From positions 1 through 57,225 of the IMG/VR virus record IMGVR_UViG_3300012952_000001: DNA of 57,225 nt; one strand, 5' to 3'. Every line of letters begins with the position of its first letter. Position 1 is the first letter of the stretch. The notes below the pieces were generated by a model. That model saw only the letters and a program-made list of their open reading frames with translations. It was not told the origin of the DNA and did no database searches. The position numbers and the translations under genes are program-made. Positions 51,698 through 56,938 of this stretch are shown piece after piece. This DNA is from a virus. Its lineage: Duplodnaviria; Caudoviricetes.

Positions 51698-52702
51698 TTA
51701 TAAGTAACATCTAAGTTTTTCATCTAAATCGCCTGTGCCATCATAGTATTTATCCTCTATGTGCCTAATAATCTCGGCATCGGATATGTGACCACCCAAA
51801 GCCTCACGTAATAGGTTGGCTGTGATGTCAGGGTAGTCGGCTATGGTCTCGGTCAGCATGTCGTCATACGTACCATAACCTTTGTATTTGTTTGGACCGA
51901 TAGACCAATAGTTACTATACTCAGCCACTGTTGGGTCACGTTTAGCAGGTAGCTTGGCAAACTCATTACCATACTCACACATATAACTACACAGTGATAT
52001 AGCATGAGGTATGTCCTGATACTCTTTGCCTGTATGCTGATTAAAGTAACCCACCGAGATATTAGTACACTCGGATATAATACCTGCATAGTTATCTGTA
52101 TCAGTAAACGAACCTGTTTGGTCTAGTTTATAGAAATACACATCTTGCAATAGATTAGCAAGAGCATTGCCAAAGGTATCCGAACAGCATCGCATACCAC
52201 CTTGATGGGTGATAACACTATCTTGCCCATACCTATCAAAGGCAATAGCTATGTCAATACATTCTATCAGCTCAGGTGTTTCATCTCTAATATAACTAGA
52301 GCCTATACCACCACACTCTTCTTCTCGGTGAAAGATATACAAGCCCTCTATACCATGACGTATCATATTCATCATAATCCATACACCAGTACCACAATCA
52401 GCACCCAAAGGTTTACCATCAGTCTTAAATATCTTGGTAGGACTATTAGAGCCATCAAGAGTAATAGTCTGTCGGTATTTGCTTTTACTATTATGCACAG
52501 TATCAGTATGGCACGACCACATAATAGTAGGGCTGTTGCCAATCGTCTTGTACAGATTACCTGCCTTGTCTTCTCTAACACCCAAAGGTCGAATGTATTT
52601 ATTTATCATTTTACGTTCACCTTTACTGTTAGCTGAACGGCAGTAGTTCAGTATGTCGTAGAGTTCTTTGATGTCTACCCTACTAGACTTTTTAAGTTGC
52701 AT
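51698..52702 (-). CDS. M28/M20-family Zn peptidase
   Basis: HTDTV, LGAD, EE.G..GS, FDR, N.SVGY..H. Confidence 0.85.
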   Translation of the reverse strand: MQLKKSSRVDIKELYDILNYCRSANSKGERKMINKYIRPLGVREDKAGNLYKTIGNSPTIMWSCHTDTVHNSKSKYRQTITLDGSNSPTKIFKTDGKPLGADCGTGVWIMMNMIRHGIEGLYIFHREEECGGIGSSYIRDETPELIECIDIAIAFDRYGQDSVITHQGGMRCCSDTFGNALANLLQDVYFYKLDQTGSFTDTDNYAGIISECTNISVGYFNQHTGKEYQDIPHAISLCSYMCEYGNEFAKLPAKRDPTVAEYSNYWSIGPNKYKGYGTYDDMLTETIADYPDITANLLREALGGHISDAEIIRHIEDKYYDGTGDLDEKLRCYL

Positions 52703-53933
52703 TATTGTTTTGCTCCTGTTCTAATTGTAATTGTTCATTATGTTTATCTGCTTCAACTTCTTTCTCATGTTCTGCGTTGCAGTCTTCACACCTACACATC
52801 TCGTCCTCTTCAGAGTAAGTACCCTCTTCAAACCATTGGTCACAGCTCTCACAGTAGTAGTGATTATCTGTACAACAATCACATACCCATATAGAATCTG
52901 TACCACGTTCGGTACGAGTAAGGTATCGCTTTGTCTTGGGGTCTTGCTCTGTAGTCGTTATAGTTCGAGTAAAGAACCGAATGACTTCTCTCATATTATC
53001 ATTATGCACTACTTCATTACACTCTTCACACGTCATAAAGCTATTCTCATAACAAGACCAACATATATCACCTGTGCCATCGACGTATATAGAGTCGTCG
53101 CCCTCGCATTGAGACTCTTCACACCAAGCACACCACCAACCACATTCTTCATGCAGTCCGTGTGTATACTGAGCGCAGTAGTCATAGCTATGCGACATGG
53201 TAAAATGGTCTCTGTCACTAGAATACCTAACACCATACTCATTATCTAAGTACGGCATAATATAGCCGTCAGGGTTGTCATTACACCTAACTAATTTAAC
53301 CTTAGCACCCTCGAAGTCATCGCCCTTGTCAGGTTTGTAACCACTCTTGTCAAGTATAGATTTAAGCCTAGCAACATCACCATAGATAGTGCTATACACC
53401 TTTTTCTTGAGATATACTAATGCCCTACCTCTAGGTTTAGCCAAGCCACCAATATAGGCAATGCCTAAATCTCCAGACCCATACACAACGGTAGGGTGTT
53501 GAGAACTAGAGAAGTGGCTAGTATCATGCGACATACATGAATTAGGTCCATTTGTATAGACCTGCACAATATCTTTAGATGTCGTCGCTATCTCTAACTC
53601 ACCTGTATCGAAGCAGGCATTGTGAGATTCTACTACCTCACGTATCCTGTCCTCAGTCAGCCCTTTAGTGAACCGATTGAGATACCTACCAACTTTGATA
53701 GGTGTTTGTCTGTCAGCATGACCCTTAGCAGAGTTCTCTGTGTATGCTAACATAGATGGATTATTGAGAGATACGTGGACAAAATGGTTGTCGGTGTCAG
53801 GTCGTATAAAAGCACCTAGCACATCATCAAAACCATCATCAAACCAAATAGGTTTAGAATACTCATTATTTAAAAACCTATCACGTTCTCGCTCAATCCA
53901 TACTGAGTCGTCATTGTCACAACTACTACACAT
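52692..53933 (-). CDS. Protein with SCM-motif domain and C-terminal CxxC repeats
   Basis: GPNSCM, GRALV, PYLD, then about six CxxC pairs. Confidence 0.7.
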   Translation of the reverse strand: MCSSCDNDDSVWIERERDRFLNNEYSKPIWFDDGFDDVLGAFIRPDTDNHFVHVSLNNPSMLAYTENSAKGHADRQTPIKVGRYLNRFTKGLTEDRIREVVESHNACFDTGELEIATTSKDIVQVYTNGPNSCMSHDTSHFSSSQHPTVVYGSGDLGIAYIGGLAKPRGRALVYLKKKVYSTIYGDVARLKSILDKSGYKPDKGDDFEGAKVKLVRCNDNPDGYIMPYLDNEYGVRYSSDRDHFTMSHSYDYCAQYTHGLHEECGWWCAWCEESQCEGDDSIYVDGTGDICWSCYENSFMTCEECNEVVHNDNMREVIRFFTRTITTTEQDPKTKRYLTRTERGTDSIWVCDCCTDNHYYCESCDQWFEEGTYSEEDEMCRCEDCNAEHEKEVEADKHNEQLQLEQEQNNNAT

Positions 53934-53947
53934 AATAACCTCCTTGT

Positions 53948-54118
53948 TTAAGTAGTTTGTCCATAAAGTAAGGCTCGTTCCTGTCGCTTATACTTTATCT
54001 TGCGACGTACTTGCCTTTGCGATTTGTGGTAATCCCTAGCCTTTGGGCTACCACTATGTTTAATCCTAATCTTTTCAAAGACTGGACTAACCATCATCTT
54101 TTCTATGTTCTTTGACAT
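53948..54118 (-). CDS. 56-aa basic protein (not in ORF track)
   Basis: AAGGAG RBS; MSKNIEKMMVSPVFEKIRIK... Confidence 0.6.
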   Translation of the reverse strand: MSKNIEKMMVSPVFEKIRIKHSGSPKARDYHKSQRQVRRKIKYKRQERALLYGQTT

Positions 54119-54251
54119 ATTTATCTTTCTCCTTAGCTCTATTGAATGAGCCTTTGCCCTTTTTAGAGGGAACTATCTGTTGCCGTCTCCTACTATTAAG
54201 CAGGGCTTTGGCTATAGGATTTACTATATTATTTATACCAAATTTGCTCAT
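54087..54251 (-). CDS. ArfA-like alternative ribosome-rescue factor (54 aa, not in ORF track)
   Basis: NPIAKALLNSRRRQQIVPSKKGKGSFNR; GAGGGAG RBS. Confidence 0.7.
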   Translation of the reverse strand: MSKFGINNIVNPIAKALLNSRRRQQIVPSKKGKGSFNRAKEKDKYVKEHRKDDG

Positions 54252-54260
54252 GGCTGTCAA
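54232..54260 (-). promoter_or_regulatory. sigma70-type promoter
   Basis: Minus strand TTGACA-17 bp-TATAAA. Confidence 0.55.
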
Positions 54261-54276
54261 GCTCCCTCTAAAATTA

Positions 54277-54293
54277 TTATGCGCGACGCATAA
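54277..54293. promoter_or_regulatory. 17-bp palindrome, copy 1
   Basis: TTATGCGC-G-ACGCATAA. Confidence 0.65.
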
Positions 54294-54295
54294 AA

Positions 54296-54616
54296 CTAGG
54301 CTACTCTTTTCTTAGCTTTCGCTAGTCTACCAAAGTTTTTATTCACCTTAGCACCAAGACTAAGTTGAAGAGTACAAGCATCAATCTCCTTAGTCAGGAT
54401 TATATTGAAGTTTTTAGGTGCAGACACATTAATCTGCGTACCGTAGGCAGTCTTCTCAACTCTAGCCTTTGTAAGAGCCTTGTTAAGAAAAGCAGTCACC
54501 TTGTTAAACTTGCGACCATAAGCCTTTTGGTAGACAACCTTTAACTTGTCTAACTTAATTCGGTTTTGGTCAGTAAAACAGGCAAGGTGTTTACCTGTGT
54601 TGTATAAATAAGCCAT
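54296..54616 (-). CDS. Early hypothetical protein
   Basis: AGGAG RBS; basic 106 aa. Confidence 0.7.
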   Translation of the reverse strand: MAYLYNTGKHLACFTDQNRIKLDKLKVVYQKAYGRKFNKVTAFLNKALTKARVEKTAYGTQINVSAPKNFNIILTKEIDACTLQLSLGAKVNKNFGRLAKAKKRVA

Positions 54617-55706: not shown

Positions 55707-55723
55707 TTATGCGTTACGCATAA
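55707..55723. promoter_or_regulatory. 17-bp palindrome, copy 2 (perfect)
   Basis: TTATGCGT-T-ACGCATAA. Confidence 0.7.
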
Positions 55724-55896: not shown

Positions 55897-55913
55897 TTAT
55901 TCGCTACGCATAA
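55897..55913. promoter_or_regulatory. 17-bp palindrome, copy 3 (degenerate)
   Basis: TTATTCGC-T-ACGCATAA. Confidence 0.55.
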
Positions 55914-56921: not shown

Positions 56922-56938
56922 TTATGCGTAACGCATAA
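56922..56938. promoter_or_regulatory. 17-bp palindrome, copy 4 (perfect)
   Basis: TTATGCGT-A-ACGCATAA. Confidence 0.7.

Follow-up and report, generated by a model that had tools for sequence, protein, structure and literature searches.

Does a small open reading frame (ORF) near the right end of a marine phage genome encode a relative of the bacterial ribosome rescue factor ArfA, and if so, would that relative still free ribosomes stalled on non-stop messages? The ORF, of 54 codons, lies on the minus strand at 54087-54251 of the virus record IMGVR_UViG_3300012952_000001, a stretch of 57,225 bp that was analysed at full length and is referred to below as the window. Here, we establish that the ORF is a real gene and that, judged by its sequence, it belongs to the ArfA family as a diverged member encoded by a phage. 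Rescue of non-stop ribosomes is the best reading of its function, and we assign it a probability of about one half.

The ORF runs from an ATG at 54251-54249 to a TAG stop codon at 54089-54087. By direct reading, a purine-rich Shine-Dalgarno (SD) sequence, AGAGGGAG (54262-54269, minus strand), stands 10 nt before the ATG, and an in-frame TTG at 54260 is unlikely to serve as the start because it lies just 1 nt from the SD. A preliminary description of this locus had proposed a 54-aa minus-strand ORF with a ribosome binding site, and the translation is exactly as claimed there. In public gene predictions the identical 54-aa protein occurs on 182 contigs, and relatives are encoded in 26 viral loci. 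Searches recovered 24 representatives among 1.84 billion proteins and eight close clusters among 5.8 billion, one of which had been named ArfA by the Joint Genome Institute. A precomputed label of the Pfam family ArfA (PF03889) was carried by four of eight relatives, two of these being close (93-96% identical). In the homologues designated type B below, the proportion of synonymous differences (pS 0.38-0.71) exceeded that of non-synonymous differences (pN 0.02-0.14) in all ten pairs of five sequences over 27 codons, a count that left out locus L004, which has one extra residue. The type-B homologues are under purifying selection. The public runs listed as carrying the sequence are marine DNA metagenomes, with no RNA run among them, and a megablast search of the region against cultured phages gave no match.

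Membership in the ArfA family was examined by several comparisons. ArfA is the best Pfam match of the protein (PF03889, E 1e-5), with residues 15-41 aligned to profile positions 15-42 of 44. The score of 25.3 bits falls just below the curated gathering cut-off of 25.5 bits, which counts against membership; 24 of the 26 aligned family members match the same profile at E<=0.01. When a profile of the 26 relatives was searched against 177,635 sequences of the PDB, the six best matches were ArfA entries (E 7e-4 to 2e-3), the next matches had E 0.43 or worse, and only chains of Escherichia coli ArfA were found at E<0.01. A single-sequence phmmer search of the PDB did not reach ArfA and gave chance matches at E>0.1 alone. 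BLASTP aligned phage residues 11-38 to residues 14-41 of E. coli ArfA without a gap and with 12 of 28 positions identical; the E. coli sequence was taken from arfA of NC_000913.3, against which the ArfA core quoted in the preliminary description was found to be correct. With hhalign the probability was 86% when E. coli ArfA was the only target, and 91% for a set of 11 enterobacterial ArfAs. No match to the protein was found in PHROGs or NCBIfam. Taken together, these comparisons make it very probable that the protein is related to the ArfA family, and the homology proposed in the preliminary description is thereby corroborated.

The comparison with E. coli ArfA (YhdL; PF03889; PDB 5MDV, 5MGP, 5U4I and 5H5U) can be made part by part. 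In the accounts given in PMC5378476 and PMC8012679, residues 1-14 of the E. coli protein are a minidomain that becomes ordered when release factor 2 (RF2) opens and that stabilises the open form; residues 15-24 are a helix that is built around Ala18, lies at the decoding centre and controls RF2 opening (PMC8012679); a patch of Leu19, Leu24 and Phe25 binds Trp319 of RF2 and explains the specificity for RF2 (PMC5378476); Gln27-Glu30 add a strand to a sheet of RF2 (PMC8012679; PMC5378476); and a basic tail, which includes a KH motif, fills the mRNA channel to about residue 46-48 (PMC8012679; PMC5378476). The last 17-18 hydrophobic residues are described as regulatory and as missing from the active form, which is 54-55 aa long (PMC8012679).

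The phage protein shares the order of these parts, helix, strand-like segment and KKGKGS-aromatic-x-R, and with 54 aa it has about the length of the active truncated E. coli ArfA. Its predicted helix (residues 12-19) is joined by an Arg-rich linker (21-23) to a strand-like QQIV segment (24-27), and the channel motif KKGKGSFNR (30-38) is followed by a tail that is first basic and then acidic; the AlphaFold2 model places helices at 12-19 and 38-49, with a mean predicted local distance difference test score (pLDDT) of 69. Residues K30-R38 align to K33-R41 of E. coli ArfA, so that the KKGKGS-aromatic-x-R motif is kept, and this segment is matched in the ArfA chains of the PDB; its location in the mRNA channel is known for the E. 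coli protein (PMC8012679). In the central helix, hhalign pairs A16 with Ala18, and the ungapped BLASTP alignment pairs K15 with it. The columns N11, P12 and A14 of the family alignment, all in the helix, are invariant and the most conserved. That conservation peaks in a helix whose E. coli equivalent touches the decoding centre speaks against a protein that is nothing but a basic plug. The QQIV segment (Q24-V27) aligns to QRVE of E. coli by hhalign and is rich in strand-favouring residues; the monomer model has no strand there, which says nothing either way, as the strand of E. coli ArfA arises through its pairing with ribosome-bound RF2.

In contrast to E. coli arfA, the phage gene ends at its own stop codon and lacks both the hydrophobic C-tail and the 3′ hairpin that, with RNase III, serves non-stop regulation. 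No E. coli-like 3′ hairpin giving a non-stop mRNA is evident at the gene, and none would be needed because the ORF ends at a stop and a second gene, ORF2, overlaps its end. The stop codon and the missing tail were described correctly in the preliminary description, and the same form is found in homologues from three phages of Gammaproteobacteria, namely gp99c of Salmonella phage Arash, an uncalled ORF of Pseudomonas phage pf16 and a coding sequence of Pseudoalteromonas phage J2-1, all three of which have a core of 47-52 aa, their own stops and no hydrophobic tail. The present gene further differs from its E. coli counterpart in being phage-borne, in belonging to a phage group that infects Alphaproteobacteria and in being coupled to ORF2.

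If the protein rescues ribosomes, it would most likely act on those that have stalled after reaching the 3′ end of a truncated mRNA: its basic KKGKGS-F-x-R segment and tail would slot into the vacant mRNA entry channel, the conserved NP-I-A-K-A-L-L helix would sit at the decoding centre, and the QQIV segment would extend the domain 2/4 sheet of a class-I release factor by a strand. The release factor recruited in this way would hydrolyse the peptidyl-tRNA, and ribosomes would be freed for phage protein synthesis without tagging by transfer-messenger RNA (tmRNA). The protein would be made together with the translationally coupled ORF2, and the own stop codon and missing hydrophobic tail suggest that its output would not be gated by trans-translation as that of E. 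coli arfA is. Ribosome binding, release-factor recruitment and a benefit to the phage are inferred. Small peptides with a comparable mode of action exist: BrfA of Bacillus subtilis is a small basic peptide that enters the mRNA channel and recruits a release factor by strand addition (PMC8012679), and ArfT of Francisella is likewise small, basic, channel-entering and release-factor-dependent. PMC8012679, in its account of these two peptides, reports no sequence relation to ArfA beyond the KH motif, which is absent from the phage protein.

A number of observations weigh against rescue. Recruitment of RF2, as it was written in the preliminary description, is uncertain for the phage protein, since Leu24 and Phe25, which contact Trp319, align to an Arg and to a gap by hhalign, leaving L17 opposite Leu19 as the only equivalent in the patch. 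The N-terminal minidomain is shortened: 10 unrelated residues precede the helix in the phage protein and 3-6 in many relatives, compared to 13 in E. coli ArfA. The A16 column opposite Ala18 is variable in the phage family, where I, L, V and T occur, and the KH motif is missing, with E41 and K42 standing opposite K44 and H45 of E. coli. Loss of the RF2 patch weakens the rescue reading, and in combination with the short N-terminus and the missing KH motif it leaves release-factor recruitment plausible but unproven. In the literature searched, no functional study of any phage ArfA was found.

The expression signals predicted at the locus add to this side of the balance. The minimum free energy (MFE) fold of the minus strand of region 53930-54310 is far better than that of shuffled sequences (z -5.24) and contains a 14-bp stem whose 5′ arm (54260-54273) includes the SD and whose 3′ arm (54161-54174) covers codons 26-31 of the ArfA-like ORF. 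The duplex energy of this stem is -25.2 kcal/mol, compared to -15.0+-2.5 kcal/mol in shuffles, none of 200 of which was as good; the SD of the present phage is thus predicted to be masked. Masking was rejected as a family-wide trait, as only two of 22 distinct loci gave z<-3 (the present phage and L063); L065 reached -2.1, the other loci were near 0, and three loci without an ATG start were skipped in the scoring.

A sigma-70-like promoter is also predicted on the minus strand at 54232-54260, with TTGACA at 54260-54255, between the SD and the ATG of the ArfA-like gene, a 17-nt TG-extended spacer and TATAAA at 54237-54232. It is absent from the automated scan because the rule of that scan needs a T at position 6 of the -10 hexamer. 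The layout recurs in 17 of 25 distinct upstream sequences of the type found in Puniceispirillum phage HMO-2011, and the -10 T and A are kept despite differing encoded residues; HMO-2011 itself, L017 and L071 have instead a -10-like TATACT, a 5′ hairpin and AAGGAG upstream of the ArfA-like ATG. The predicted transcript start, at about 54225, falls within codon 9-10, so that such transcripts would encode ORF2 and not the ArfA-like protein. With the SD masked and a promoter inside the gene, the amount of ArfA-like protein may be low or conditional, and the constitutive activity suggested in the preliminary description finds no backing in a start site buried in a predicted stem or in transcripts that would lack the start codon. 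A 9-bp hairpin recurs within type-B ArfA-like ORFs (L004, L010, L014, L018, L033 and L034), where the codons for A-L-L pair with those for Q-V-V-P; transcripts that begin at the internal promoter would carry it close to their 5′ end.

The same losses that weaken rescue lead to the alternative of an ArfA-derived binder that has given up release-factor recruitment, which we regard as somewhat unlikely. Such a protein would fill vacant A sites and mRNA channels and compete with tmRNA-SmpB, and would either spare phage proteins from being tagged and degraded, or hold ribosomes in place or silence them, acting as an inhibitor or modulator and not as a rescuer. The channel-blocking mimic offered as an alternative in the preliminary description may likewise be right. 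Besides the lost Leu24/Phe25 equivalents and the shortened minidomain, this alternative may draw on two reports summarised in PMC8012679: peptides of the SmpB tail interfere with trans-translation, which indicates that a channel-binding peptide can act as an inhibitor, and the ArfA(A18T) variant demonstrates that binding without activation is possible. However, conservation in the phage family is highest in the helix and the strand segment, the parts with which E. coli ArfA recruits and activates RF2, and a pure plug would need the basic tail alone. Moreover, type-B relatives change the KKGKGS motif and keep the helix.

ORF2 encodes a very basic protein of 56 aa (53948-54118, minus strand) and shares 32 nt, read in a different frame, with the 3′ end of the ArfA-like gene; by direct reading its SD, AAGGAG (54129-54134, minus strand), is part of the ArfA-like coding sequence and precedes the start codon of ORF2 by 10 nt. 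The overlapping arrangement was found in 17 of the 26 loci obtained with ArfA-like queries, and in addition in HMO-2011 (L033, ORF2 at 1405-1557) and Roseobacter phage CRP-1 (L034, ORF2 at 2187-2324); 11 of these ORF2 sequences match the ORF2 search profile by construction because it was built from them. A search seeded with ORF2 only yielded 27 loci, 14 of them contigs new to the analysis, and an ArfA-like ORF was directly upstream and overlapping in all 27; across the present phage, L033, L034 and L052-L078, the ORF2 proteins measure 45-56 aa. The linkage of ORF2 to the ArfA-like gene is new here, and ORF2 probably acts on the same target as the ArfA-like protein. The ORF2 family comprises 159 clusters in public predictions, which are unnamed or termed hypothetical but for one odd label. 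ORF2 had no credible match in Pfam or PHROGs and no match in the PDB at E<=5, and in the ESM Atlas it reached just unnamed viral clusters with scores <0.9. A K-R-D-x-W-K/R motif raised the idea that ORF2 mimics the SmpB tail; this was rejected, as the hhalign probability was 0.13% and no match was found at E<=10 in four SAR11 genomes or at E<=5 in the PDB.

This linkage is also what recommends a second alternative, that the overlapping pair is the functional unit and the ArfA-like peptide works only with ORF2, the basic helix of which would fill the mRNA channel or supply the lost contact. ORF2 is predicted to be a single long basic helix of 28 residues (25-52, pLDDT ~90). An aromatic residue in the region of Phe25 is present in none of the ArfA-like proteins linked to ORF2 and in eight of nine loci without it, although this pattern follows clades and so reflects few independent events. 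On the other hand, ORF2 has neither a detectable relation to the SmpB tail nor a family in Pfam, PHROGs or the PDB, the internal promoter suggests that it is also expressed without the ArfA-like protein, and the present ArfA-like protein has a full basic tail of its own. We consider a strict two-piece factor doubtful. That the ORF is due to chance, or that its DNA or RNA is conserved as a regulatory element only, is hardly credible: a promoter and 5′ hairpins for ORF2 are conserved inside a short ORF of an AT-rich genome, but synonymous changes far outnumber non-synonymous ones, a promoter cannot give rise to the Pfam, PDB and hhalign matches to ArfA, and relatives occur in contexts without the internal promoter.

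The relatives form a graded series from SAR11-like and pelagiphage forms, which have P-K-Y at the position of P-L-F in E. coli together with KKGKGSF, through type A, to which the present phage belongs and which combines the Arg-rich linker with KKGKGSF, to type B, which includes HMO-2011 and combines the Arg-rich linker with a D-K-T-K-Y-N-R-K-K tail. Phage genes of this family were known before as annotations, and the present gene is a divergent variant of a known factor. Gp30 of Pelagibacter phage HTVC027P, which the present protein matches directly (the tblastn match lies inside the gp30 gene), is annotated as ArfA, and its transcripts are reported to be high at 3 h and at 12-15 h post infection (PMC12753301); g10 of Citromicrobium phage RXM carries the same annotation (PMC8953757); and the ArfA of phage J2-1 (GenBank MF988720.1) has the DKTKY-x-RKK variant of the tail found in the type-B relatives. 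All three are small stop-terminated phage proteins with an ArfA domain, RXM g10 being compared by annotation only. In HTVC027P gp30 and the SAR11-like forms the aromatic of P-K-Y is retained and ORF2 is missing, whereas the present clade lacks the aromatic and has ORF2.

The ORF had been described as uncalled. Public gene callers do call the protein, and the term applies to reference records instead: the RefSeq record of HMO-2011 lacks both small genes (L033, 1287-1448 and 1405-1557), and the record of CRP-1 has gp04, read in another frame, at the place of the ArfA-like ORF (L034, 2033-2215). Arash gp99c is labelled 'ribosomal protein L2' in its record (L049, 217-441), and in pf16 an opposite-strand ORF is annotated in place of the ArfA-like one (L050, 295-438). 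A contig of a metagenome-assembled genome assigned to Acholeplasmatales, from goat rumen, encodes a 52-aa protein with KKGKGSF-K-R followed by an overlapping ORF (L029, 1001-1159), and may carry a further phage-borne ArfA-like gene outside marine systems.

ArfA-like genes also appear on the chromosomes of SAR11 bacteria. PF03889 matched 32 of 101 sampled genomes of Pelagibacterales at E<=0.01, 11 of them above the cut-off, and in a control set of 14 genomes it matched E. coli only. Thirty of the 32 matches fall in open frames of 33-70 aa, and two weak ones, probably spurious, in frames of 366 aa. The SAR11 genes encode 35-54 aa, have their own stop codons and are set among housekeeping genes in a conserved order, with a PfkB-type kinase or a photolyase-like gene as neighbour; examples are L028 2989-3111, L030 2989-3099 and L040 1498-1605 (minus strand), and a further one, L032, is from an unpublished genome. 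They share with the phage protein the N-P-I-A-K start of the helix, the KKGKGSF-K-R motif and the short stop-terminated form, and unlike it they are cellular genes, in which the aromatic of P-K-Y persists and an ORF2 partner is missing. The stop-terminated form is therefore not special to phages, contrary to the contrast with cellular ArfA drawn in the preliminary description. SmpB was present in all four SAR11 genomes checked, which have just two genes with an RF-1 domain, of 348-367 aa, and thus no gene of ArfB size. The distribution given in the review PMC8012679 restricts ArfA to some beta- and gamma-proteobacteria, and a survey of 15,259 genomes recorded ArfA in these two classes only, plus BrfA in Bacillus, with none in 2,376 Alphaproteobacteria (PMC11633108, Table 1). 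The ArfA-like genes of SAR11 and of HMO-2011-type phages conflict with this published range; no paper on ArfA in SAR11 was found in the literature searched.

With its 57,225 bp the window represents a complete virus; it has terminal repeats (exact repeat 123 bp) and a GC content of 34.3%. Its plus strand encodes the large terminase, portal, major head and tail fibre proteins of a tailed phage, and its minus-strand arm encodes a DNA polymerase, a helicase, a primase, a ribonucleotide reductase and an integrase. Compared at full length, the polymerase shares 67% identity with the DNA polymerases of HMO-2011 and the Roseobacter phages CRP-345 and CRP-1, which makes the phage a marine podophage of the HMO-2011 type. 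Cultured members of this type infect Alphaproteobacteria. The ArfA-like gene is one of the small genes that open the leftward, early arm, some 3 kb from the right end, and in HMO-2011 the record has the homologous ORF near its left end, between gp01 and gp02; both placements agree with the early gene envisaged in the preliminary description. Scans of the whole window for tRNA and tmRNA and against Rfam gave no match. Directly downstream of ORF2, a 413-aa protein (52692-53933, minus strand) with a Cys-rich C-terminal half has as its sole match PHROG 6980, a family of unknown function. A 15-bp palindrome, TATGCG-N3-CGCATA, occurs in four copies compared to 0.02 expected, one of them with a single mismatch, at 54278-54292, 55708-55722, 55898-55912 and 56923-56937, all between ORFs of the early arm. 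One copy is just upstream of the ArfA-like SD, where locus L001 has a different palindrome; on the minus strand it may form a terminator-like 7-bp hairpin (54277-54293) between the stop of the upstream ORF and the SD. The palindromes may be operator sites or RNA hairpins.

One may speculate that the ArfA-like protein and ORF2 form a phage-specific two-peptide device, derived from ArfA without its RF2-specific patch, that would act on ribosomes with an empty mRNA channel by recruiting a release factor in a new way or by excluding tmRNA-SmpB, and further that ArfA is native to SAR11, release-factor-dependent rescue being widespread in marine Alphaproteobacteria and their phages; we consider this reading unlikely. 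The obligate ORF2 partner represents an unstudied protein family, and several reference phage records miss or misname these small genes. Natural variants that lack the RF2-binding patch or KKGKGS are ready probes of the ArfA mechanism. If the phage peptides rescue non-stop ribosomes, or take them over instead, phages would have in them a compact tool that could keep translation going during the destruction of host mRNA or the firing of RNA-cleaving defences. The occurrence of the family in abundant marine phages and on SAR11 chromosomes widens the range of a factor thought to be confined to beta- and gamma-proteobacteria.

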